Below, one piece after another: positions 1,610-36,487 of a DNA stretch of 64,000 nucleotides (the stretch's first letter is position 1; each line of letters begins with the position of its first letter). The stretch is from Acidimicrobiales bacterium (GTDB taxonomy: Bacteria; Actinomycetota; Acidimicrobiia; Acidimicrobiales; SZUA-35). A program made the position numbers and the translations under genes. The stretch is from positions 17,525 to 81,524 of the forward strand of contig JAHDDW010000007.1 of NCBI GenBank assembly GCA_020629155.1. Direction: 5' to 3'. The notes under the pieces were generated by a model. The model ran no database searches. It was not told the origin of the DNA and worked only from the letters and a program-made list of their open reading frames with translations.

Positions 1610-3850
1610 TTGGCCATGAAAAGATTTGTCACAATTGTTTTAGCGCTGGTTTTTGTAGCAGCCACGCCACAAGCTATCTTTGCTAATGTTCGCATCGAAA
1701 ATTTTATGTCGACAGAGCTTTCCAACTCGTTAGACGGCACACGAGTATATGATTATGGCAGCGGCACTGATCATGAATTTACCACCACCGCAGATTTTGC
1801 TTCGGGCACGCTGAGCGACAACATTACCGCCCATGACGATGCGGCGGTTGTTAACCTTGACTGGTGGGATGAAGGCTGGACGAAACGGCAATGTTTCGAT
1901 ACAAAAACCTCTACCGCTTATGGGCAATACCCATTTCGTGCTGTCGTTGACACAACAGGGCTCGCCGACGACGACATTCGAGTTGTTGAAGCCTTGTTGC
2001 CTGGATCAAGCGCAACACCTCTGCCCCATTATACCGAAGGTGTTATCGGCACATCAGACACGGTCGTGTGGTTTCAAGGTGAAGGAACCATCGCAGGCAA
2101 AACCTATTGCGTGTATTTCAACAACAGCGACACCGCAGTAACAAGCACGTCTGATGAGATGGCACCGTTCACCTACACTAACGGCCAGTTCATAACCTAT
2201 TATGCTATGTTGCCTGCCTGGAATGGTGTTGGCGGCAACGGCGAGGTCGATGTTATTTCCTACATCAATGGCAATACGGTTTCAGATGGGACAACAACCG
2301 TCACACTCAATCAGGGCCAAATCCACACATTCACTGGCTTTAATCAAGACAGTTTTATCACCGCAACAGGCCCTATCGACGCTTCACATGACAGCAACGC
2401 CAAAGAAGCCTTGACTCCTGAAGGCTTCGCTGATAGCACCCATATTTTTCCAACCACTCGAAGCACGCAAAGCTACCATATTCGTTCACCTTATGGCGCA
2501 ACAACTATTGAGGCGGTGATTAACGGAACGGTTGTTTCGACTACCCCAATCAGTCCAGCAGATAGTGTTGTGAGCATTACCGAAAATGGGTCATCATATG
2601 TAACACTTCGCTCGACTGATGGCACCAAGTTTTTAGCAAGCCATGTCGCCACTGAGACCCATGACGCTTTTTCGGGTATTCCATGGTTCGGCGATGATCT
2701 CTATGGTGTTGCATCTGAAAACTTTCATATTGGTTCGCTAACGGCAACGACAGTTACACACACCAACCAAAACGGTGTCACGGGCACTGTTGGTATTCCT
2801 ACTGCGAGTCTTTACACAATCGCAGGTAACGGACCAGGCCGAGGTAACGGTATTGCTTACAGAATCGAACCTGGGGCGACAAAAATTGCGGCTATCCAGC
2901 AGCGCGACGATAACGGTGTGGAGTCCACTAGCTTTCTACCAGAGAGATTGCTTTCACAAACCTATCGCTTCCCTATCGACCATAATTATTGGACAATCGC
3001 CTGCCCGACGCCTGGCACACAAGTTTCTGTCAACGGCGGTGCTGCACAAAGCTGCAACGGCACCGTTGTCGGCAATCTCTGGTCGACGCTTGGCAACTAC
3101 AACGCTGGGCTTTTGGTCGAAGCTGACCGTCCAGTGTTTGTCTATTATGAATCTGACGCAAATAGTGACGAGCAAAATATTTATGGCGCTAAAGCTTCGA
3201 TTCCATTTACTGCTGGTGTCGGTATCGCTCCTCGCACTATAGAAATGTTTAACTCTTGCGGCAACTGGCTTTCGCCTAGCTTCGCGGTAAACGATGTGCT
3301 TGGATTAGCAAACATCGCTACGGACCTTTCAGCTGGCGGGTCATACACCTATCAGATATCATTCGACGGTGGGCCATTTACTGGCCCTGATGGCACCGCT
3401 GCAACGTCATATAGCGATGGCGACTATATACCGTATGTTTACGACGGCTCTTCTACTGCGCAAATTTTTGTGACGCTTTGTGGATCTGGTTCTGCAATTG
3501 AATCGGTTTCGTTTGAATGCAGTTTACAAGAAGTCTTTAGTGGCGATACTGTTGCGGTTGGAGGTGACGAAGCAGCGTTGCGTGTCTACCCAACGTTGAC
3601 AAATTCATCGCTCATCTATGAATCTTCAACCACGCCAGATAGCTACATTGTTTCTACCGATGTCGGAGCTGCGACACAAATCCAAGCCGCAACAGGAACA
3701 GTTACAAATCCTGCGCCACCATTTACGTCAGCGCCCTATAGCGTGCTTTTCAATTCAGTTTCTGCTCAAAACTCTACACTCACTGCAGCGGTGCGTGATG
3801 AAGGTAGCGTCTTGTTAGAAACTGTTGTTACCTTTGCAATTAACAGCTAA
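1610..3850 (+). CDS. Large secreted protein of unknown function
   Basis: 746-aa ORF with an N-terminal signal peptide (KRFVTIVLALVFVAATPQAIFA). Thr/Ser/Gly-rich and beta-rich composition; no motif I recognise. The start could be ATG at 1616. Confidence 0.7.
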   Translation: MAMKRFVTIVLALVFVAATPQAIFANVRIENFMSTELSNSLDGTRVYDYGSGTDHEFTTTADFASGTLSDNITAHDDAAVVNLDWWDEGWTKRQCFDTKTSTAYGQYPFRAVVDTTGLADDDIRVVEALLPGSSATPLPHYTEGVIGTSDTVVWFQGEGTIAGKTYCVYFNNSDTAVTSTSDEMAPFTYTNGQFITYYAMLPAWNGVGGNGEVDVISYINGNTVSDGTTTVTLNQGQIHTFTGFNQDSFITATGPIDASHDSNAKEALTPEGFADSTHIFPTTRSTQSYHIRSPYGATTIEAVINGTVVSTTPISPADSVVSITENGSSYVTLRSTDGTKFLASHVATETHDAFSGIPWFGDDLYGVASENFHIGSLTATTVTHTNQNGVTGTVGIPTASLYTIAGNGPGRGNGIAYRIEPGATKIAAIQQRDDNGVESTSFLPERLLSQTYRFPIDHNYWTIACPTPGTQVSVNGGAAQSCNGTVVGNLWSTLGNYNAGLLVEADRPVFVYYESDANSDEQNIYGAKASIPFTAGVGIAPRTIEMFNSCGNWLSPSFAVNDVLGLANIATDLSAGGSYTYQISFDGGPFTGPDGTAATSYSDGDYIPYVYDGSSTAQIFVTLCGSGSAIESVSFECSLQEVFSGDTVAVGGDEAALRVYPTLTNSSLIYESSTTPDSYIVSTDVGAATQIQAATGTVTNPAPPFTSAPYSVLFNSVSAQNSTLTAAVRDEGSVLLETVVTFAINS

Positions 3851-3940
3851 ATCATCTGCCGTTAAAAACGGCTGCAAAGCCAAGAACATATCCTATGCCC
3901 GGGTTCCTTTGATAGGCTTGTCTCCGACAAGGAGATGTTC

Positions 3941-5386
3941 ATGACAAAAGCTGACCTCGGGCTGATAGGCCTCGCCGTGATGGGGCAAAATCTGGCATTA
4001 AACTTCACAGATCAGGGAAACACTGTCGCTGTTTATAATCGCACAACATCTGTCACAACCGATTTTGTTGCTGGCCCTGGCGAAGGCCACAGCCTGATTG
4101 CTTGCGAAGACCTACAAACGTTCGTTTCGACTATTACACGTCCAAGACCGATACTGCTTATGGTTAAAGCTGGCCCTGTGGTCGATACTGTTATTGATCA
4201 GCTTCTCCCTTTCCTCGACGAAGGTGACATCATCATCGACGGCGGCAATTCGCTTTATACCGATTCGCAGCGACGTGTCGAAACGCTCGCAGATAAAGGC
4301 ATTCTTTTTGTCGGTTCTGGCGTTTCTGGTGGCGAAGAAGGCGCACGCACAGGTCCTTCTATCATGCCAGGCGGTAACGAGAACGCAGAAAAAACTGTTA
4401 TGCCGCTACTTAAATCAGTCGCTGCGGTTGCCAAAGACGGCAAACCTTGCTGCGAATGGTTAGGCCGTGGCGGCGCTGGGCATTACGTCAAGATGGTGCA
4501 CAACGGCATCGAATACGGCGATATGCAAGTACTTTCAGAGGCATACACAGTTATGAAAGCTATGGGCATGTCACATAGTGAAATGTCCGACACGTTTACC
4601 AGCTGGGATGAAGGGGTTCTCGACTCTTTTCTTGTCGAAATCACAGCCGATATTCTAAAAACGAACGATGATGATGGTTCTCCCCTTGTTGAGAAGATCC
4701 TCGACAAGGCTGGCCAGAAAGGCACCGGCAGGTGGACAGTTATTTCAGCGATGCAAGTTGGCCAGCCAGTCACGCTTGTAAGCGAAGCGGTAAGCGGACG
4801 CATTCTCTCATCGAAGAAGGAAGAACGTGGCCAGGCTGCTGCTATTTTAGAAGGCCCTAAGGCCATGATTGATCGTGACGCAATTTCTTTAGATGATCTG
4901 CGCGATTCTATCTATGGCGCGAAGATCGTCTCCTACGCACAAGGCTTTATGCTGCTTGAGGCTGCTTCGCAAGAATATGACTGGCATCTGAATCTTGGCG
5001 CGATTGCTGGTTTATGGCGCGAAGGTTGCATTATCAGAGCCGCTTTTTTAGACGATATCACCGCAGCGTTCGCTGCACAGCCTGACCTAAACTCGCTATT
5101 GCTCGACGCTGGTTTCGCGAGCCAGCTTAACGCTGCCCAGCAGGGTTGGCGCAACGTTGTCGCAACCGCAGTTGCAAATGGCATCGCTATTCCTGCATTT
5201 GCGTCGGGTCTGTCATTTTATGATGGGTATCGCACCGCAAACGGTTCGGCGAATATGATCCAAGCAATGCGAGATTATTTCGGCGCACACACCTATGAAC
5301 GAGTTGACAAACCTGCCGGCGAATGGTTCCATACTAACTGGACAGGCACAGGCGGATCAACCACTTCAGGCAGCTACAGCGCCTAG
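3941..5386 (+). CDS. gnd: 6-phosphogluconate dehydrogenase (decarboxylating)
   Basis: N-terminal Rossmann motif GLIGLAVMGQNLALN and full-length Gnd-like sequence. AAGGAG lies 6 nt before the ATG at 3941; the track ORF starts two codons earlier at 3935. Confidence 0.93.
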   Translation: MTKADLGLIGLAVMGQNLALNFTDQGNTVAVYNRTTSVTTDFVAGPGEGHSLIACEDLQTFVSTITRPRPILLMVKAGPVVDTVIDQLLPFLDEGDIIIDGGNSLYTDSQRRVETLADKGILFVGSGVSGGEEGARTGPSIMPGGNENAEKTVMPLLKSVAAVAKDGKPCCEWLGRGGAGHYVKMVHNGIEYGDMQVLSEAYTVMKAMGMSHSEMSDTFTSWDEGVLDSFLVEITADILKTNDDDGSPLVEKILDKAGQKGTGRWTVISAMQVGQPVTLVSEAVSGRILSSKKEERGQAAAILEGPKAMIDRDAISLDDLRDSIYGAKIVSYAQGFMLLEAASQEYDWHLNLGAIAGLWREGCIIRAAFLDDITAAFAAQPDLNSLLLDAGFASQLNAAQQGWRNVVATAVANGIAIPAFASGLSFYDGYRTANGSANMIQAMRDYFGAHTYERVDKPAGEWFHTNWTGTGGSTTSGSYSA

Positions 5387-5511
5387 CCAACCTAGCAAGT
5401 TAGCGGCCAGTTGTAGACCACTCTATGTAGTGTTGCTTCACAGTTGTCACAGATTGGTGAGTTGTTCTTCACAGATTTTGGTTTGTGGTTAGTTGTGTTA
5501 GGATTGGTTTC

Positions 5512-5739
5512 ATGATTCAGAAGCCGAAATACACTTTGAACGAGATGCGAGACATGAGCCTAGCGGAACGAAAAGCCAAGCTTCCTAAAGCTCGACTTAT
5601 TACTGATGAATCTGAACTATCAACTAAAGATAAGAACTGGGTTGATTCTTGTGTAAACAACTTTGTTGAGAAAGTCCAAAGAGCAGAAAAGGCAACTGAC
5701 CATGCTTACAAGATTTTTCAGGGTACCGACACAGAGTGA
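5512..5739 (+). CDS. Small hypothetical protein, antitoxin-position gene of a two-gene cassette
   Basis: 75 aa from the ATG at 5512 (AGGA 8 nt upstream). Charged and helical. Its stop overlaps the next ORF's start (GTGA). Confidence 0.45.
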   Translation: MIQKPKYTLNEMRDMSLAERKAKLPKARLITDESELSTKDKNWVDSCVNNFVEKVQRAEKATDHAYKIFQGTDTE

Positions 5740-6041
5740 TTCGCAAAGTTAAAGTTTCTTCAAATGCTTTCGATAAACTCGATGTCTTGCTGCCAGTGAA
5801 ACTCCCTGGGTTTCCTGAAGAATTCACGGTCCAAGATTTTATAGACCTGGAACTTCCTGAAATCATAAACAAATTTGCAACAGAGTTTGATGACTTGCCT
5901 GCATCTGAAACTCAATTACCCAGATACAGATATGCCATTTTTGCTGGACTCATCATCCCTAAGATAGTAGCCTTTGGATTTCTCCACGCTAACAACGAAA
6001 TCTCAGTTCTTGATCTAGAATTAAACCTCAACCAAGTGTGA
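5736..6041 (+). CDS. Small hypothetical protein, toxin-position gene (possibly RelE/ParE-superfamily-like)
   Basis: 101-aa ORF overlapping the upstream ORF by 4 nt. It shares the pattern DF-x3-(E/D)L-x2-I-x5-(F/W)D-x-(L/F)P with the degraded ORF at 12711-12966. Confidence 0.4.
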   Translation: MIRKVKVSSNAFDKLDVLLPVKLPGFPEEFTVQDFIDLELPEIINKFATEFDDLPASETQLPRYRYAIFAGLIIPKIVAFGFLHANNEISVLDLELNLNQV

Positions 6042-6077: not shown

Positions 6078-7253
6078 TCACCTTCCAGTTGTAGACCAAT
6101 GCCATGGCTCGCTAGGCAAGTTTTTCAGACCGTAATTAGCGGCGTTTGCTTTTAACCAACGGAAACCTGAACTGCTGCTATTTAGTGAAGACCCATTTTG
6201 CGTAAAATCGATAGCTAAACCTGTCTCATGTTGCGAGGACCCAGGACGTGCCGTTGGAGGACGGCAACTGCTCGACCGTTTCTGGTAAATATTGTATTGC
6301 GTGTTACCTCCGCAATTTTGAATCCGAAGCTCGATCTGTCTTTGATGTGACCGCAACCCCCAACCACCGAATTTGATACCATCAGCCGCTGCATCATCAA
6401 GAAGGTTCTGAATATCTGTCGCTATCGAAGCCCTAACCTCTATTGTGTCGCCTGTAGCGGTTTTTACCGTCGCAACCTCAATTGTGCCACCAGCTGCAGT
6501 ATTTACGTCTTTTGTACCAGGCCCGATAAGCTCCTCGATATCGTCATCAAGCTCGACTTCATCATTAAGTGCTTCTATCTGAGCTATCAACTCTCGAAGC
6601 TCTTCTTTAACTTTTTTTGCTTCTTCTTGACGCTCTTCTTCTTCCTGCTCGAAAGCGACAAGCTGCTTTTCATATTCAGCTTTAGCTGTTTCGGCATTGA
6701 GCTCGTTGCCTAACGCAACTCTTTTGTTTTGTTTTGCAATTTGATACTGCTCTATTTTATTAAAGTCGCTATCTGTCAACTCATCCAAAAAATATTCACT
6801 TCGCTGGTACGCCAGATTTTCACTCATCCCGTTCTCTTCATCAACCGCAATCGGGTCTAGCGGCGAAATTTGTGATGAAATATACCCATCAATAAGATTT
6901 GAAGCTAACCCTTCTTCAAGGTCTGCGATTTCCACATCTAATGCAGCAATCTCTTCTTTTGCTACTGCTATAGTACTATCTGCGTCAACAATGCCTTGTT
7001 CTGCGTTACCAATTGATTGTTTCGTCGCAGAAATAGAACGCTGCACATCTTTAATCGACTGATTTATCTGCTTTTCACGTTCGAGGGCGTCACGAACTGC
7101 TTCTTGTAACGTCTCTGCCTCAGATGCTTCTTGCGCCGCATACGTTCCAGACTGTGCCAACTGAGAAACAAACACCAGCGTCGCTACAGCAATAATAAAC
7201 CGGGCAACCATTTTTTTGCTTTGCAACACCACAACCCACCTCCGCCGATCCAT
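6078..7253 (-). CDS. Secreted coiled-coil protein with C-terminal M15B (VanY-like) D-Ala-D-Ala carboxypeptidase domain
   Basis: Signal/anchor segment FIIAVATLVFVSQLAQS, then a long Glu/Lys-rich coiled coil. C-terminal motifs: GWGLRSHQRQ, HETGLAIDF, EPWHWS. The true start may be GTG 7232 or ATG 7211. Confidence 0.8.
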   Translation of the reverse strand: MDRRRWVVVLQSKKMVARFIIAVATLVFVSQLAQSGTYAAQEASEAETLQEAVRDALEREKQINQSIKDVQRSISATKQSIGNAEQGIVDADSTIAVAKEEIAALDVEIADLEEGLASNLIDGYISSQISPLDPIAVDEENGMSENLAYQRSEYFLDELTDSDFNKIEQYQIAKQNKRVALGNELNAETAKAEYEKQLVAFEQEEEERQEEAKKVKEELRELIAQIEALNDEVELDDDIEELIGPGTKDVNTAAGGTIEVATVKTATGDTIEVRASIATDIQNLLDDAAADGIKFGGWGLRSHQRQIELRIQNCGGNTQYNIYQKRSSSCRPPTARPGSSQHETGLAIDFTQNGSSLNSSSSGFRWLKANAANYGLKNLPSEPWHWSTTGR

Positions 7254-28924: not shown

Positions 28925-29115
28925 AACAGCTACCTCCATTGGTGGCAAAAATACGTAGCACTTCTATGGCTGTTTGTTGCGCAGTTTCGTTACATCTCTG
29001 CGACGAACAGACCGTTATAGCATAAACCTCAGAAAACAAAAAACTCGCACCCGAAGAAGGAAATTTCAAGTCTGCGAATACAACCCCAATCAAGCTGCTT
29101 GTATAGTTGGCCTAG

Positions 29116-29247
29116 CAGGAGCAGCATTATGAGACTGGCGCTACAAATCCAGTCTATGGGGAAATAATTGAAAACTCAGAACTATCTCTAGAAGAAACTG
29201 TCAAAGAAATTCTAAAGATCATCGGGAGACTTAAAAGAAAAAGCTGA
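29116..29247 (+). pseudogene. Start-less C-terminal gene remnant (P-loop kinase-like tail, e.g. APS-kinase-like)
   Basis: The frame opens right after a TAG and reads QEQHYETGATNPVYGEIIENSELSLEETVKEILKIIGRLKRKS-stop. No start codon. It lies at the edge of the Rpn islet. Confidence 0.25.
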
Positions 29248-29304
29248 AGCTGAATTTTTCGCAGAAAAGCCTCATTCTACACCTCATCACTGCTCAACCG
29301 CCTG

Positions 29305-30225
29305 CTAGAGTTGCTCGATTTGTTGTGGCGTTAATTTAGTGTAAAGACTGATTTGTGACGCAGGCACCCCAGCCTGTTTCATCTGCGTAGCGATACTTTG
29401 TCGTTCTTCCTGTTGCGCTTCTTCTCTGCCTTGTTGTCTGTATCTCTCTTTAAGCGTTGGCATTGCAATTCCTTCGTCTACTAGTTTTTTGGTTAATGTT
29501 TCGTAGGTTTCTGTTTCAAGGTCATGCTCATGCAGATATTTTAAGATCGCATAGAGCAGTTCAGTATCCTCAGTAACCCGGCTTAAATTTATCATTAAAC
29601 CTGCAAGACGTGCAATGGCTTTGTCAGATGCAGGTGGCTTGATAGCTTTCAAAAGTTCAAAGACAAGCGTATTCTCAAGAGAAGCTTTGTCAAAAGATAT
29701 GTCGTGCACATTGACAAGCAGATACTCGAAATTTGGGATGTAACGTTTAAGGTCAAAAGGGATTGTTTCCAACAGTTGGTGCATATTTGTTGCTGAATTC
29801 CAGTGTTCGTTGCCGTGATAGAAAACGAGGGGCAAAATTAGTTTAAAAGGTTCTTTTCCATCATACTTTTCCCAAATCCTTACGATGTAGCGCAGTAGCT
29901 GAAAAATGACTGTCTTGTCAGTTGAGCTTTTATGTTCAAACAGCAAATAGACATACGCTGGATTGTCGCTATCAAGAAGTCTTGTCTTATAGAGTAGGTC
30001 TGAATGCGAACGAATAAGGTCAGGAGAAACAAATGAGTCTTTCTGAGGCGCCAGCGTGCCGAGGTCAAGCAAGTTCACAACTTCTTGTGGAAAGAAATTG
30101 ACGACAAAATCAGCAGCCAGTCGAGGGTTACCGAGCCATTTTTTGAAGAATGCGTCATGCGGTCGATAAAGAGTATTCTTTAGATCATCAGTTGACTTGT
30201 CTTTGTTGACAGGTTCTTGTCTCAT
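29305..30225 (-). CDS. Rpn/YhgA-like PD-(D/E)XK recombination-promoting nuclease (putative transposase family)
   Basis: HDAFFKKWLGNPRLAADFVVNFFP, SDLLYKTRL, YVYLLFEHKSS and FQLLRYIVRIW match the YhgA-like layout (D...ExK). AT-rich islet. Confidence 0.8.
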   Translation of the reverse strand: MRQEPVNKDKSTDDLKNTLYRPHDAFFKKWLGNPRLAADFVVNFFPQEVVNLLDLGTLAPQKDSFVSPDLIRSHSDLLYKTRLLDSDNPAYVYLLFEHKSSTDKTVIFQLLRYIVRIWEKYDGKEPFKLILPLVFYHGNEHWNSATNMHQLLETIPFDLKRYIPNFEYLLVNVHDISFDKASLENTLVFELLKAIKPPASDKAIARLAGLMINLSRVTEDTELLYAILKYLHEHDLETETYETLTKKLVDEGIAMPTLKERYRQQGREEAQQEERQSIATQMKQAGVPASQISLYTKLTPQQIEQL

Positions 30226-30752
30226 AAGAGGAATACTCGAAATGACGCACCCAGTTTAAATGCAGCGTATGCTTTAGCAGCACAGTTCTCTATGAAACGG
30301 AACGTCGCTCCATAGGATTCCATCAAGAATTTACCTTCTGAGCCTAACGAGATGGTTGATAACCACAGCCGAGCATTTCCTCCAGAGAGTTCAACGCTTT
30401 CGTAGATTGCGTTTCGAGCTAGAGAAAAATTTTCATGCCAAGTAGTATCAGTTTCTTGAAGCCAGTGTGAAGAGTTCGAGATCTGAGAAATGAACTGACG
30501 TTCTTCATCTAAAAATTTCTTGTCTCTTGCCCCATAAAAATCGCTATATACCTGATCGGTGAAAGACACAAGTTCGTGCGAAACGACGTCTGGCTTTAAC
30601 GACCAGACGAGACGCCTACCATCTTCTGCCAAGTTATACGCTTCGAGGCAGAAGTGAGACGAAACAACATCAAGAACTTCCTCAGTCGAGACACCCTCGG
30701 GTACGTCCAGTTTAGCTTCTGCAATAAATCCGATATTCAAATAAACACCCAT
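30222..30752 (-). CDS. Hypothetical protein translationally coupled to the Rpn-like nuclease
   Basis: 176-aa ORF. Its TGA overlaps the Rpn ATG (ATGA at 30222-30225). No recognisable motif. Confidence 0.55.
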   Translation of the reverse strand: MGVYLNIGFIAEAKLDVPEGVSTEEVLDVVSSHFCLEAYNLAEDGRRLVWSLKPDVVSHELVSFTDQVYSDFYGARDKKFLDEERQFISQISNSSHWLQETDTTWHENFSLARNAIYESVELSGGNARLWLSTISLGSEGKFLMESYGATFRFIENCAAKAYAAFKLGASFRVFLL

Positions 30753-31002
30753 AGGTGCAAACTACACAAAAAGAGACCCACAATTACATTAAATACTTTA
30801 ATTTCTTTTAAATGCTTTTATCTATCTTACTTTTTGACACCGGCAAGCCAAGTTTGTGCTCGCAGATACCCAAACATTTAAGAATGCAACGATATATACC
30901 TCTTTCTAAATTTTTTTGCTTTCTGAAATAATCGATATTCCATGTAAAGGTAGTTTCTATTCAGTGCACCAGCAAGCAGTGCGGTGAAACTATAGTTGGG
31001 CG

Positions 31003-32259
31003 ATGACCCAGCAGCAAATGCAACGGCTCGACTTCATAGACGCACTGCGTGGAATTGCTGCACTAGCAGTTTTGCTGCAACATTGCGCCGAAAAACTTTG
31101 GCCCGCCTATTACCGTTTTTCGGTTGAAACTATCCGCCCAGGCCAATGGGGCGTGTTCGTGTTTTTCCTCGTCAGCGGCTTTGTCATCCCGCTATCGTTA
31201 AAACGAGAAACCAGCACCGTAGCATTTTGGATAGGCCGTTTCTTCCGCTTGTTCCCTCTCTATTGGGCAATGCTCGCTGCTGCCTATGTTACGTGGCAAC
31301 TTGGCTGGTACGGCGTCGACCCAGCGGTGAGCGCGAAACCATTGTGGCATCTAATCAAAAACGCCACGATGGTGCAAGAATTTATTGACGCAGACCATTA
31401 CATCGGCGCTGCATGGAGTCTAGCTTATGAGATGGTTTTCTATCTCTATATAACCGTCATTTTCATGAGTGGTTTAACGAAAAAGGCTGCAACGAAATCA
31501 ACTATAGCAACACTTGGCTTGGCGATCAGCCTTGGCTTATTAATTACCCCTACCTTTGTTTTAGGGGCAGAACCTCACACAAAACGCATCGCCATCCCTT
31601 TAGCTGTTACTGCGCTTTTCCTCACGATTTTCTGGGACAAGCTAAGCAACAAGTATCACAAAGCAGCTTCTGGGTTTACGTTGTTCATAGGTGTTGCTTT
31701 GCTGCTTAATCAGCCGCTAGATATGTGGTTTACCCTGCTGTTATTCGCCACGATGGGTTGTGGCTGGGTGTATTACGAAGCACATTGTGGCCGGGCACGT
31801 ATCTCAACAGCGCTGCTACTGAGCGTGGCAACAACGTTTCTTTTTGCCTTGCAGCTTCGCTGGTGGACGGTGCCTCATCTTGACCCACAAGGCGCTTTCG
31901 TGACGTGGAAAGCAAGCGCTGTTACCCTCTTTTTTGCGCATGCTACGTTTATAGCAACATATTTTCTGCGCAGCTATAACTACCCTAAAACGCTTCTCTG
32001 GCTAGGCAAAATAAGCTACTCTTCCTATCTTGTACACGCCATAGTTATTAATGCCGTGCCGAAACAGGCTAGTGCGCTGACAACACTTACGGTATGGGTA
32101 GCAATCACACTTGTAATTTCTACAGCAACATTTTATGGAATCGAGCTACCGATGCAAAAAGTCGGCCGACGCCTCCGAACACGATGGCGCACGAGCCGAC
32201 TCGGCGTCAGTGAAATTGACCTTCGCACAGCTGCCAAAGAAGTAAGAACTACTACATAA
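31003..32259 (+). CDS. Acyltransferase family 3 (OafA/YrhL-like membrane O-acyltransferase)
   Basis: RLDFIDALRGIAALAVLLQH N-terminal motif and about 10 TM segments. Confidence 0.82.
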   Translation: MTQQQMQRLDFIDALRGIAALAVLLQHCAEKLWPAYYRFSVETIRPGQWGVFVFFLVSGFVIPLSLKRETSTVAFWIGRFFRLFPLYWAMLAAAYVTWQLGWYGVDPAVSAKPLWHLIKNATMVQEFIDADHYIGAAWSLAYEMVFYLYITVIFMSGLTKKAATKSTIATLGLAISLGLLITPTFVLGAEPHTKRIAIPLAVTALFLTIFWDKLSNKYHKAASGFTLFIGVALLLNQPLDMWFTLLLFATMGCGWVYYEAHCGRARISTALLLSVATTFLFALQLRWWTVPHLDPQGAFVTWKASAVTLFFAHATFIATYFLRSYNYPKTLLWLGKISYSSYLVHAIVINAVPKQASALTTLTVWVAITLVISTATFYGIELPMQKVGRRLRTRWRTSRLGVSEIDLRTAAKEVRTTT

Positions 32260-32483
32260 AGTGTGAAGCCTCCAGGCCTGTTGGCCTGTTGGCCTGTACC
32301 ACAGCACAATAGCAACCCCCACGAAAGCCCACAAGCGGTTGCAAGTGATTCATTTAGCAACCTAAACGACTCCCATGTCAACTGCGCAGATACTAGGACC
32401 GTTCAAAAGGTTTAGCCCATGGCCAACTTCCAAATGAGCCAAAACATTGAAGCACCGTCACCGCTAAGGTTGACAAGAGGTGC

Positions 32484-32521
32484 AATACGAAAGAAGGAGG
32501 CACATGCACTGCGCCCCCTTC
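32484..32521 (-). terminator. Rho-independent terminator downstream of the adhesin gene
   Basis: On the minus strand GAAGGGGGC pairs with GCCTCCTTC (9 bp including one G-U), followed by TTTCGTATTG. Confidence 0.6.
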
Positions 32522-32557
32522 CCTATTCGCTACGTTATGTGATTTATTTGTTTAGCA

Positions 32558-35500
32558 TTAAACTCTGGCTTTGCCAGCCTGATCTTTTTTGAATCGAGTG
32601 GCATAAACCAAACCGCCCATAAGCAGTAGGCCAAGACCAAGAGCGAACAAGACAGTAGTGAAGTTCGTACCTGTTTTAGCTAGAATTCCACCAATGCCAA
32701 CAGTTGCGACATCATGATCATCCTCGTCTTCACCAGCTTTACCGTTCCCATCGACGTTATCGTCATCAGGATCGCCACCAGTTTCAGGACCAACATCATC
32801 GTTTGCTGCATCAGGCATCGAATCAATATCGTTACCCAAATTGCCTTCGCTATCATAGGCTTCACTGATCTCAGCGAAGTTATTAATAACGCCAGCAGCA
32901 TCTGAATCAACACTGAAAGTAATTTCAACTGAGATAGTGTCGCCCGCAACGAGAACATCTGTATAAGTGATAGAAGCTGTCCCATCACCATTATCTGTCC
33001 AGTCACTATCATTCAGCGTCAAACCAGCAGGAATGTAATCGGTGATCGTGATATTTGATGCATCAACTTCGCCCTGATTTATCACGCTGATAATAAAGCT
33101 AACACTGTCACCAGGGTTCACAGAACCAGTGTTTGTGCCGTCAGCTAGCTGCTTCATCAACGCAAGGTCAAATATCGGACCATAGAAACCGAAATCAACC
33201 GTTAGGTTTTCGTTCTCGTCAGCTGTGTTCGGATCATTATCAGGGTTCTCACCTGTTGGTTCTCCGTCGCCAAGCATAACAGTGCCCGACAATACATAGC
33301 CTGTGTCACAACCACAGCCTGAACCGTTATTGTCGTTATCAACATCGTCGTTTGGATCAGTTGACACTGGCGTAGACGGCGCCCAACCAACTAAAGGCTG
33401 ACCTGGTTCCCATTCCATCGGTGGGATACCAACAATGTATTTACCTGCTGGCAAACCGTCGAAGAGGTACATACCATTCGCATCGGTACCTGTTGTAGCC
33501 ACAGCATCATTTACATCTATGATTCCGTCACCATTTATGTCATCAGGAACACCATCATTATCATTGTCAGTGAACAATTCAACCCACACATTCGCGATTG
33601 GCGATTCGTCAGGGTCAATTATTCCATCGTTATTAGCATCGAACCAAACCTGATTACCAATGCTGTAGTCGCCACCGATTACAAGAGACGCCACGTCGTG
33701 GTCATCTTCGTCATCGGTTCCATCACCATCAACATTGTCATCATTGTTACCGTCACCTGTCACAGGACCGATGTCACCAGGTGTGCTGTCAGGATCAGAG
33801 TCAACATCTGAAACAGGGTTACCTTCAGTGTCAGTAAACCCAGCAATTTCAGCGAAGTTGTCGATTGTTCCGGACGCGTCAGCATCAATAGTAAAGGTAA
33901 TGTCAACCGTGGCTGATGTAGTACCAGGAAGTGATGCGATCGGCGTATTCAACGTTGCTGTACCATCTCCGTTGTCAGTCCAATCGCTATCATCAAGCGT
34001 CAAACCAGCAGGAACATAGTCAACTAGTGCAACGTTTGCAGCATCAGTATCTAGCTGGTTAATTACTGTCAAGGTGAACGTCACCTGATCTCCAGGAGCT
34101 ACAGAGCCGACATTGCTGCCATCTGCTAGCTGTTTCGTCAACGCAAGGTCATAGGCTTGTGTGAACCCAAAGTCTAGCGTGTGATCATTTTGACCAGCAG
34201 AGCCAGTGGTGTACATAATCGCTGGGAAGCCGTCCATGTCGACAGCATCAGAATCTGCATCGTCATCATCGTCACCGCTATCTTGTGTTAGCGACCAACC
34301 TTCAAGAGGACCACCAGCAGCATAATCGGCTGGGTTATCCATCTTTATTTTGTATTCCGTGTTTGGATCAACATCAAAGTAGTATGAACCGTCAGGACCA
34401 GTGATCGCTGTTGCAATCAACGTTACACCATCAGCGGCATACAAGTTAACTGTCGCACCAACAACAGGAGCTTCTGAAGGATCTTGCACTCCATCACCAT
34501 CAGCATCAAACCAAACATAGTTACCAATTTGGATAGGAGCTGCTTCACAAAGCGCTTCGATGTCACCTAAGCCACCAGCCTTTTGGAAGTCTTCACCTCG
34601 AAGCATCATGTAGCCACGTTCAGCTGAACCATCGACATTGTTATTCCAAACAAGACCATTTGATGAGAAGTAGAACGGAGGACCAAAAGCTTCAGCAGGG
34701 TTGATCTGTGTATGAACAAGAGGGAACCCAGGAATCTGTTCACTAGAACCTAAGTTTGATTCATGGTGGAACGTACCAACATCAGGTCCACCACCATCGG
34801 TGTAGAATTCATATCCTTCTGGATCAGTTGCAGATGATTCTGCTTGTGCCCATACGCCTACGTCATTACTACCTGTACGATCGCCACATTCAAGGCCATC
34901 TTCAAGCTGGTACGTTCCTGTGGTTGGATCTGTAGCATCAGGCACGAATGCCGAACAAACTAAGTCACCTTGAACAATGACTTTATAGAGTCCTGTTCCT
35001 AAATCTGGAACTTCTAGAAGCCAACCGAACTGGTCAGCTGTCATGTCTTTTAGACCCAGAGTCAAGTTGTTGTTATAGAAATCAATGTCAGTTAACAAGT
35101 GCTGTGGCCGTCCGATGTCATCTTCTGCATCGGGGCGCACGGCAACATTACCTGAAAGATCAACGATATTCGGAACCCAAGCTCCGTATGTTTCTACTCC
35201 TTCATCAAGTGGAGCGTGGCTGTGTATCAATGTGAACGTACCTGTAACTGGATCCACCTCATAGACATAGAACAACATGTCAGCTTCGTCACCTGTAGAA
35301 AGGGCAGTACATGTTACACCAGAGTAAAGTTTTCCATCGTGATATTCTAAAGCAAACGGAATGATATCGGTTGCCGGATCTGGACATGTTTCATAGTCAA
35401 TACCTAATGTGGCATCGTTGTAATCCCAAGAATCGATAACGCTACCATCAGCGGTGCTAAGAGCAACAAGTTCTCGACTTGTCAAGTTATGCACATAGAG

Positions 35501-36487
35501 TGTCGTGTCATCATCAGAAATGTCAATGTCACCTAGAGCACAATTAGCTACTGCTTGGAATACTTCATTTGTAATACTAGGAACTTCTTGGAGATCAGTA
35601 TCTGTACTATGAGGATCATCACAAACATCAAAACCTAGATCAGCAAGATCAACGAATTCAACGGCAGGGCCGCTAGCTAGACCAGTTGCTGGGTCCATAG
35701 GAACTTGGTAAATCGCGCCTGGTCCACCTGGACCGAAATCAACAGCAGCTTTCATGTACGAGGCGAGAAACAATACTTCGTCGGTGCGGTTCCATGCTTC
35801 GCCCCATACGGCTCCGACATCGCCAGTGCTTACCTCTTTATTAGGTGGCGTGTTAACACCAGTGTCATCAACTTGCCAATCATCTGGCCAGTTACCACCA
35901 CTATGGCTATCTGCTCCCCAGTTGAAACCTATTGTCGTTACTGCATCGTTTGCAGCAACATTATCTGGATCATCATGTGCGCCTACTCGGTAACAAGGCA
36001 CCGCTAGGAAAACTCCAGAATGACAGTAGTCTGCTGGGTTCATGACACCAAAACTCAGTGTACAGTTGCCAGCTTCGGCAAACTGGACAGATGACTGATT
36101 GTCAGCACCGCTTGGGCCTGACTCCAGGAATGTTTGATTTGGCCATGTGAACTCAATACGAATTGGTGTGCCTGCAGCAACCGATGTCGAAAGGTCGAAC
36201 GATCCATCAGCGAGCGTTGTGGTCGTGCCGACTGCTGCACCCGTGTCGTCATAAGCGGTGACTACAACTCCAGCTTCACCAGGCTCAGCATCATAAGTAT
36301 CAACACCATTTGGGTGTGGATCACCTTGCGCCTGACGGACACCATCGGCGTTATGGTCTCTAAATACTGACCCCACACAATCGCCGGGGGCTGCACCTAC
36401 TGGTGCCGCTGGCACGATAACAGCTAAAGAAGCTGACAACAGAGCGACAACCCACAAGGCGCACGCTCTTTTGAACAAATTACTCAT
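32558..36487 (-). CDS. Cell-wall-anchored surface protein with SdrD-B-like and DUF11-like repeat domains and LAKTG sorting signal
   Basis: Signal peptide. Repeated motifs GNYVWFDADGDGVQD / GNQVWFDANNDGIID and LALTKQLADG... / LALMKQLADG.... C-terminal LAKTG (32669-32683), then a hydrophobic segment and a basic tail RFKKDQAGKARV. Confidence 0.88.
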   Translation of the reverse strand: MSNLFKRACALWVVALLSASLAVIVPAAPVGAAPGDCVGSVFRDHNADGVRQAQGDPHPNGVDTYDAEPGEAGVVVTAYDDTGAAVGTTTTLADGSFDLSTSVAAGTPIRIEFTWPNQTFLESGPSGADNQSSVQFAEAGNCTLSFGVMNPADYCHSGVFLAVPCYRVGAHDDPDNVAANDAVTTIGFNWGADSHSGGNWPDDWQVDDTGVNTPPNKEVSTGDVGAVWGEAWNRTDEVLFLASYMKAAVDFGPGGPGAIYQVPMDPATGLASGPAVEFVDLADLGFDVCDDPHSTDTDLQEVPSITNEVFQAVANCALGDIDISDDDTTLYVHNLTSRELVALSTADGSVIDSWDYNDATLGIDYETCPDPATDIIPFALEYHDGKLYSGVTCTALSTGDEADMLFYVYEVDPVTGTFTLIHSHAPLDEGVETYGAWVPNIVDLSGNVAVRPDAEDDIGRPQHLLTDIDFYNNNLTLGLKDMTADQFGWLLEVPDLGTGLYKVIVQGDLVCSAFVPDATDPTTGTYQLEDGLECGDRTGSNDVGVWAQAESSATDPEGYEFYTDGGGPDVGTFHHESNLGSSEQIPGFPLVHTQINPAEAFGPPFYFSSNGLVWNNNVDGSAERGYMMLRGEDFQKAGGLGDIEALCEAAPIQIGNYVWFDADGDGVQDPSEAPVVGATVNLYAADGVTLIATAITGPDGSYYFDVDPNTEYKIKMDNPADYAAGGPLEGWSLTQDSGDDDDDADSDAVDMDGFPAIMYTTGSAGQNDHTLDFGFTQAYDLALTKQLADGSNVGSVAPGDQVTFTLTVINQLDTDAANVALVDYVPAGLTLDDSDWTDNGDGTATLNTPIASLPGTTSATVDITFTIDADASGTIDNFAEIAGFTDTEGNPVSDVDSDPDSTPGDIGPVTGDGNNDDNVDGDGTDDEDDHDVASLVIGGDYSIGNQVWFDANNDGIIDPDESPIANVWVELFTDNDNDGVPDDINGDGIIDVNDAVATTGTDANGMYLFDGLPAGKYIVGIPPMEWEPGQPLVGWAPSTPVSTDPNDDVDNDNNGSGCGCDTGYVLSGTVMLGDGEPTGENPDNDPNTADENENLTVDFGFYGPIFDLALMKQLADGTNTGSVNPGDSVSFIISVINQGEVDASNITITDYIPAGLTLNDSDWTDNGDGTASITYTDVLVAGDTISVEITFSVDSDAAGVINNFAEISEAYDSEGNLGNDIDSMPDAANDDVGPETGGDPDDDNVDGNGKAGEDEDDHDVATVGIGGILAKTGTNFTTVLFALGLGLLLMGGLVYATRFKKDQAGKARV
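32688..34530 (-). repeat. Diverged tandem duplication (~1 kb units) inside the adhesin gene
   Basis: Each unit is one SdrD-B-like module plus one DUF11-like module. The DUF11-like copies lie at about 33672-34150 and 32688-33169. Both end in DDHDVA(S/T)...IGG. Confidence 0.7.

Follow-up and report, generated by a model that had tools for sequence, protein, structure and literature searches.

A 64,000-nucleotide stretch of an Acidimicrobiales bacterium genome (GenBank assembly GCA_020629155.1, contig JAHDDW010000007.1, positions 17,525 to 81,524 of the forward strand; hereafter the window) carries, between lpd and an acyltransferase gene, a small islet of two open reading frames (ORFs) for proteins of 176 and 306 aa, which are referred to here as orf176 and rpnL. 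Reading of the sequence confirmed what a preliminary description of this locus had reported, namely that the two ORFs overlap by the four bases ATGA; both lie on the minus strand and start with ATG (Table 1). Because the overlap is real, orf176 and rpnL form an operon in this genome. Both were judged to be genuine genes and not chance frames, because rpnL matches the Rpn/YhgA family PF04754 and orf176 has 279 homologous clusters with common N- and C-termini. Rpn genes have been described as gene-within-gene toxin-antitoxin (TA) systems, in which a short protein, RpnS, arises at an internal start (Met244 of RpnA) and blocks the toxic long form, RpnL (Zhong et al. 2023, PMC10400941).

Table 1. 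Features of the orf176-rpnL locus; positions are those of the window
Feature	Position	Strand	Description
orf176	30222..30752	-	176 aa, acidic (pI 4.8); from an uncharacterised and rare family of ~175-190 aa
rpnL	29305..30225	-	full-length 306-aa Rpn/YhgA-like recombination-promoting nuclease
ATGA overlap	30222..30225	-	orf176 TGA (30224-30222) shares bases with rpnL ATG (30225-30223)
PD-(D/E)XK core, residues 22-172	29710..30162	-	contains D24, D76, E97 and K99
Predicted intragenic RpnS ORF	29305..29463	-	Met255-Leu306, 52 aa, rpnL frame
Shine-Dalgarno-like GAAGGA	29470..29475	-	6 nt 5' of the Met255 ATG
Divergent intergenic region	30753..31002	.	between orf176 and the acyltransferase gene; 35% GC
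Start-less gene tail (...YETGATNPVYGEIIENSELSLEETVKEILKIIGRLKRKS, then stop)	29116..29247	+	lpd-side islet border, between lpd and the rpn stop

The 306-aa protein scored 164.8 bits against PF04754 (Transposase_31/YhgA-like; curated cut-off 21, E 2.5e-48) and 75.7 bits against TIGR01784 (Rpn family; curated cut-off 52.1), and the four nuclease motifs listed in the preliminary description (HDAFFKKWL, SDLLYK, LLFEHKSS and FQLLRYI) were all found in it. It was aligned with RpnA of E. coli K-12, with a paralogue from the same genome and with 75 homologues drawn from 80 genome loci. In this alignment RpnA residues D11, D63, E82 and Q84, which were reported to be essential (Kingston et al. 2017, PMC5350276), corresponded to D24, D76, E97 and K99 of rpnL. 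The column of RpnA Q84 was occupied by K in 73 of 78 sequences, so that K99 is the majority residue of the rpnL clade. An AlphaFold2 (AF2) model of rpnL, with a predicted local distance difference test score (pLDDT) of 82, showed an alpha/beta core of the PD-(D/E)XK type, a helical middle part and three C-terminal helices from residue 258 on. Foldseek searches with the full model yielded weak restriction-endonuclease matches only and did not retrieve the RpnA-S entry, which was not recovered by PDB sequence searches with rpnL or its profile either; PADLOC-DB gave no match for rpnL or orf176. The proposed assignment to the Rpn/YhgA PD-(D/E)XK nucleases, a family that also corresponds to COG5464, is borne out by the two family scores and the catalytic alignment, and the 306-aa protein is, judged by its sequence, a true member with intact catalytic residues. 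The loss of D/E/K residues on alignment, which had been named beforehand as a sign of an inactive protein, was looked for and not found.

The internal start of the described Rpn systems was also found to be conserved at the level of the sequence. Met255 of rpnL (ATG at 29463) lies at most one alignment column from RpnA Met244, the mutationally defined internal translation initiation site, and is preceded by GAAGGA at -12 to -7 relative to its ATG. A Met within ±3 columns of this position was present in 70/75 homologues; 68 of these 70 had a Shine-Dalgarno (SD)-like motif, and exact tandem 4-aa repeats were present in 47. It was reported that RpnS folds as a three-helix bundle and that variable 4-aa repeats occur 8-20 residues past its Met (Zhong et al. 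2023, PMC10400941). The C-terminal helices of rpnL predicted by AF2 (residues 258-284, 289-296 and 300-305) would resemble the three-helix bundle of RpnA-S, and the rpnL tail (RYRQQGREEAQQEERQ) contains no exact tandem 4-mer. Three internal Met codons had been proposed as possible starts; the one in IAMPTLK is Met255, the homologue of the RpnS start of RpnA with GAAGGA upstream. Most likely, rpnL yields its own 52-aa RpnS antitoxin from Met255, and we conclude that this one gene is by prediction a complete Rpn system as published.

A second Rpn gene of PF04754 was found in the same genome (G000 contig C20:84727-85515; L002:1462-2382). Its 306-aa product is ~28-33% identical to rpnL and carries the repeat QGLE four times, 10 residues past the conserved internal Met; no neighbour of the 176-aa family was present at this paralogue. 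Two PF12784 genes also occur in the genome (C3:170568-171278 and C18:147486-148169).

The locus was compared with the RpnL-RpnS systems of E. coli RpnA-E and RpnP2 (PMC5350276, PMC10400941). They share their Pfam and NCBIfam families with rpnL, which is known from sequence alone, and the catalytic positions and the position of the internal Met and SD motif are equivalent in RpnA and rpnL. The sporadic distribution of the type expected for horizontal gene transfer (HGT), with no defined ends, is common to RpnA-E/RpnP2 and rpnL as well, and a C-terminal tail of three helices is predicted for rpnL. The two nevertheless differ in several respects: rpnL is only ~20-25% identical to RpnA (an estimate from the alignment) and has K99 in place of Q84, its tail is without the exact 4-aa tandem repeat of published Rpn proteins, and its start overlaps an unrelated upstream gene, so that rpnL does not stand alone. 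A small gene directly next to an Rpn gene has been described for rpnE-ypaA and rpnC-rpnCSs (Zhong et al. 2023), but in those pairs it is found downstream and duplicates the Rpn tail, while orf176 lies upstream, encodes 176 aa and has no detectable similarity to Rpn.

Upstream of HDAFFKK, no ATG, GTG or TTG other than the overlapping ATG was found in the rpnL frame, and the overlapping ATG is for this reason the sole usable start of rpnL. No SD-like purine-rich motif was found ahead of it. The ATGA overlap would accordingly be read as a site of termination-reinitiation, at which rpnL translation may be coupled to that of orf176. The divergent intergenic region upstream of orf176 presumably holds the promoter of the orf176-rpn operon. 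A promoter scan of this region was uninformative and gave no match to the sigma-70 consensus. A terminator scan flagged a 5-bp hairpin, GCACC-TATG-GGTGT, at 30745-30758 on the minus strand, with the orf176 ATG in its loop; this is probably a chance occurrence.

The protein encoded by orf176 belongs to a family of 279 clusters of ~175-190 aa, as found in an exhaustive profile search (E<=1e-3). Five clusters have 37-39% identity, every one of exactly 176 aa. Homologues share their N- and C-termini, with a near-invariant MGxYLxIG at the N-terminus, the motif L(G/S)xEGK(F/I)xME, of which G140, K141 and E145 are invariant, and (F/L)RV(F/Y)(I/V/L) at the C-terminus; they are acidic throughout, with isoelectric points (pI) of 4.6-5.9. 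The AF2 model of orf176 is a confident alpha/beta fold (pLDDT 85.4, predicted template modelling score 0.83). The records of the family are named solely 'hypothetical protein' and come from Ca. Electrothrix, Ca. Kentrum, Saprospiraceae, Riflebacteria and gut metagenomes. No match to Pfam or NCBIfam was obtained for orf176 or family members (10-47 members scanned across databases), and 47 members gave no match to PHROGs except one chance match at E 0.008. Foldseek of the orf176 model against PDB and BFVD returned nothing below E 1e-3, with best template modelling scores of about 0.25-0.3 and none above 0.33, and the family profile gave chance matches only against PDB sequences. A comparison of the family with the Rpn alignment by hhalign gave a probability of 0.1%, that is, no relation to any part of Rpn.

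The family was found to be rare. Among 401 genomes of the phylum of G041, one of the genomes with a family member, it was present in G041 itself only (1/401); it was present in none of 401 genomes of the phylum of G443, G443 included, and in none of 10 Rpn-rich genomes. No member was found in viral contigs, or in plasmids by tblastn. These genome scans were meant to enlarge the sample of family contexts, and no new contexts were gained by them. From its homologous clusters and their conserved termini, orf176 is regarded as a real gene of a rare, patchily distributed and uncharacterised family.

The origin of the islet was considered from its composition and surroundings. The two islet genes have a GC content of 42.3%, compared with a genome mean of 46.9% ± 2.7 (1.5-kb windows), which corresponds to the 5th percentile, and their GC content at third codon positions is not deviant; the islet, which had been called AT-rich, is thus mildly so in overall composition but normal at third positions. 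The gene remnant noted at its border was recognized as a start-less 43-codon tail that follows stop codons, but the tail matched no Pfam entry or other family and had neither a second copy nor a paralogue in the genome. An Rfam scan of the islet gave nothing, and neither terminal repeats, whether inverted or direct, nor a target-site duplication were detected around it in a repeat search. Forty relatives were searched, of which 3 belong to the genus of the window genome, a further 21 to its family and another 16 to its order; neither rpn (0/40) nor the orf176 family (0/40) was present in them. The neighbours of lpd in the same-genus genomes are genes that are located on contigs C20 and C47 of this genome, which places the islet at a rearrangement breakpoint. 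Horizontal movement of rpn genes, with no defined ends, has been reported (Zhong et al. 2023, PMC10400941), and the position and distribution of the islet fit such a transfer. The two genes probably arrived together, perhaps in a single event.

In the window, synteny upstream of lpd is broken when positions 28949-36487 are compared with G001 C5 and G002 C125. The acyltransferase gene (31003-32259) has a single same-genus homologue, with 49% identity, in another context.

The preliminary description had taken the stop-start overlap as evidence that the two genes are an obligate pair and had proposed a neighbourhood search for co-occurrence. This search was carried out, and no conserved association was found. 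None of 80 Rpn loci of other genomes had an orf176-family member within 3 kb (hidden Markov model (HMM) search). Conversely, 19 independent contexts of the family were collected, and an iterated HMM together with Pfam scans served to identify Rpn-superfamily neighbours in them; 16 of the 19 had no adjacent Rpn-superfamily gene. In the remaining three lineages such a gene is directly adjacent on the same strand, with differing arrangements. The window has orf176 followed by the PF04754 gene with the 4-nt overlap. The lineage L130-L133, represented by 22 contigs, has a PF12784 gene followed by the 176-family gene after a 73-nt gap. In the lineage L111-L116, PF12784/TIGR01784 genes flank the 176-family gene on both sides: in L111 the nuclease gene precedes it by 111 nt, and in L115 it precedes the nuclease gene by 100 nt. 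In one further locus, L136, the 176-family gene and a PF12784 gene are 3.9 kb apart.

The PF12784 (PDDEXK_2) genes at L111-L116 and L130-L133, annotated 'PD-(D/E)XK nuclease family transposase', resemble rpnL in that they fall into the TIGR01784 superfamily and have a same-strand 176-family neighbour; they also have Rpn-like tails with 4-aa repeats. They differ from it in belonging to another Pfam family, in the opposite gene order or flanking on both sides, and in gaps of 73-111 nt without overlap. The 176-family genes of L111 and L115 are 92% identical in protein and 96% in DNA, whereas the adjacent PDDEXK_2 nucleases share 20% identity (flanking nucleases overall 20-32%), and this comparison gave no sign of co-variation between partners. 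The nucleases beside family members retain normal Rpn tails, including 4-aa repeats of the EGKA type, and they show no sign of needing an antitoxin in trans. A tight junction with an upstream gene is not peculiar to the window: a same-strand gene lies <=30 nt upstream of the Rpn gene in 17/75 cases and overlaps it in 7. These upstream genes are unrelated ones and include those for a short-chain dehydrogenase/reductase, a MetY-like enzyme, GltX, a Fic protein and an epimerase. With 0/80 Rpn loci, 3/19 family contexts, variable order and spacing and no co-variation, the idea of an obligate pair does not hold up evolutionarily. Two findings had been named in advance as speaking against the proposed system; the absence of a conserved association was indeed observed, but the catalytic residues were not missing.

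In the 16 contexts with no adjacent Rpn-superfamily gene, AAA_14/DUF4143 ATPases and Rhs fragments or arrays were each met twice as neighbours of the family genes. Other neighbours are TA modules, AbiEii, EAD11, STAND-like ATPases, an NNH3 NTPase that has pentapeptide repeats, and a YhcG gene in convergent orientation. Housekeeping neighbours also occur, namely the genes for threonyl-tRNA synthetase (ThrRS), PurL, cysteinyl-tRNA synthetase (CysRS) and a peptidyl-prolyl isomerase.

These results are probably best accounted for by a horizontally acquired islet that carries a self-contained RpnL/RpnS nuclease, the long form of which is coupled to an unrelated upstream orphan gene. On this account RpnL would be a Mg-dependent PD-(D/E)XK DNA endonuclease that is toxic in excess. 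Initiation at the in-frame internal start Met255 would give the 52-aa RpnS, which would bind the C-terminal helical domain of RpnL and restrain it. Since the sole start of rpnL overlaps the orf176 stop and has no SD, translation of RpnL should depend on termination at orf176, and RpnL would be made only by ribosomes terminating there, at a low and coupled level, while synthesis of RpnS, which has an SD and ATG of its own, would be independent of this. The orf176 product would be a folded acidic protein of a family that moves through variable or conflict-type neighbourhoods, usually alone. The best reading of the two genes is that they are linked in expression and are not a dedicated pair.

Several observations weigh against this account. 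Three adjacent lineages among 19, together with one at 3.9 kb, exceed the chance expectation if the copy numbers of Rpn-superfamily genes are low; 4 copies were counted in 3.17 Mb in the window genome, 1-2 in 6.4 Mb in G041 and none above the cut-off in 7.0 Mb in G042. By a back-of-envelope calculation, the probability that 2 of the 18 contexts other than the window show adjacency is about 1e-3 at low rpn density, and about 0.08 with tens of Rpn copies per genome, as in rpn arrays. Moreover, within the order the two genes occur in this genome only and probably co-arrived, which would also fit a functional unit, and the strict 4-nt overlap without SD ties RpnL expression to orf176, an arrangement that selection could favour. 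The association between the orf176 family and Rpn is regarded as suggestive, short of established.

It could be proposed that Rpn-superfamily nucleases have a facultative accessory factor in the 176-aa family, the members of which would serve as a trans inhibitor, an immunity protein or a sensor, so that orf176-rpn would be a true two-gene Rpn variant. The three independent lineages with a directly adjacent, same-strand Rpn-superfamily gene speak for this, as do the PF12784 gene of L136 at 3.9 kb and another lineage with a convergent YhcG/DUF1016 PD-(D/E)XK gene; where a locus has an Rpn-superfamily gene at all, it is the immediate neighbour in 4/5. The acidity of the whole family, and the overlap and probable common arrival of the genes in the window, are also in line with it. 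We hold such a role possible but doubtful, given the absence of the family from all 80 Rpn loci and of an adjacent Rpn-superfamily gene from 16/19 family contexts, the order and spacing that are not fixed, and near-identical family proteins (92%) next to nucleases of 20% identity, which retain RpnS-type tails of their own. In addition, L111-L116 is an rpn array, and arrays raise the odds of chance adjacency, while the near-invariant polar G-K-x-x-M-E resembles a ligand-binding or catalytic site more than the surface of a fast-evolving immunity protein. The more specific version, in which the family has a fold unrepresented in PDB and is an unrecognised partner of the Rpn superfamily that inhibits in trans or senses infection, is considered unlikely. 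The arrangement does recall classical two-gene type II TA operons in its small acidic upstream protein, its downstream nuclease of presumed toxicity and its 4-nt overlap, but those operons show conserved co-occurrence, fixed order and co-variation, which orf176 and rpnL lack, and this nuclease has a predicted intragenic antitoxin of its own.

Alternatively, orf176 could stem from polymorphic-toxin (Rhs) or interbacterial-conflict arrays as an orphan immunity-type gene that has no functional relation to Rpn, both being drawn from a common flexible gene pool. In L124-L129, contigs of the human gut, a cassette that contains an Rhs C-terminal fragment and small genes begins with a family member, the family gene of L107 follows an Rhs/YD-repeat gene amid a run of small ORFs, other contexts contain the TA modules, AbiEii, EAD11 and STAND-like ATPases mentioned above, and the very rare, patchy occurrence in two phyla would be expected of such a gene. 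But Rhs genes are found in 2/19 contexts only, a cognate toxin is not consistently upstream, several contexts are plain housekeeping ones (ThrRS, PurL, CysRS), and the family has no similarity to known immunity families, so that this origin appears improbable. It is hardly credible that Rpn serves here as a transposase-like mobility gene and orf176 as passenger cargo of a defined mobile element. The Rpn family was historically annotated 'putative transposase' and the islet lies at a synteny break; however, terminal repeats and a target-site duplication were not found, the unit has no second copy in the genome, and a published study reported no evidence of autonomous transposition by Rpn (Zhong et al. 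2023, PMC10400941). A self-contained nuclease coupled to an unrelated gene is thus preferred over these alternatives.

Rpn nucleases are a recently explained and very widespread toxin/defence family, the regulation of which is thought to be purely intragenic. The locus adds to it a distant Rpn from an uncultured lineage in which the whole predicted RpnL/RpnS layout is kept, and it points to a possible route by which the toxic long form may be tied to an upstream gene through translational coupling. The more useful by-product is the rare, well-folded and unannotated ~180-aa family, which recurs in conflict-type neighbourhoods and was met three times beside Rpn-superfamily genes. If its link with Rpn is functional, the family would be a new regulator class for Rpn nucleases, and if it is not, the islet would be an ordinary island; were the partner reading true, the locus would represent a two-component Rpn toxin/defence variant alongside the gene-within-gene RpnS antitoxin. 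On present evidence the 176-aa family merits follow-up but does not amount to a new system.

Some further features of the 176-family and Rpn neighbourhoods were observed. In L111:2795-4384, L112:30-1865 and L115:128-1481, the 176-family gene is surrounded by diverged PDDEXK_2 genes that form an array. A stretch of 632 bp present in L115 has been lost from L112, where the downstream nuclease gene, intact in L115, is reduced to a 3' remnant. Upstream in L111 there are ORFs that, from their translations, appear to be istA/istB-like genes of the IS21 type. In two Desulfobacteraceae metagenome-assembled genomes (L085:~2130-4005 and L061:~4160-5810) a Fic/DOC-domain gene for 281-283 aa lies directly upstream of the Rpn gene, overlapping it by 4 nt in L085 and ending 1 nt before it in L061; the close similarity of the two Fic proteins probably reflects one lineage. 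Further tight coupling of a 176-family gene to an unrelated gene was seen in L113:65-2229, where a 177-aa member overlaps by 1 nt (an ATGA-like junction at 598) the gene for a membrane-anchored protein of 543 aa that contains a glutamate-synthase domain (PF01645). The gut cassette at L124:3811-7290, found also in L125-L129, encodes in order the 185-aa family member, a 298-aa Rhs C-terminal fragment and proteins of 122, 113 and 62 aa, and is flanked by ~56-nt direct repeats (3880-3935 and 7166-7221; 87-93% identical). It occurs in L124-L129 in at least three different upstream contexts and resembles a recombining orphan toxin/immunity cassette.

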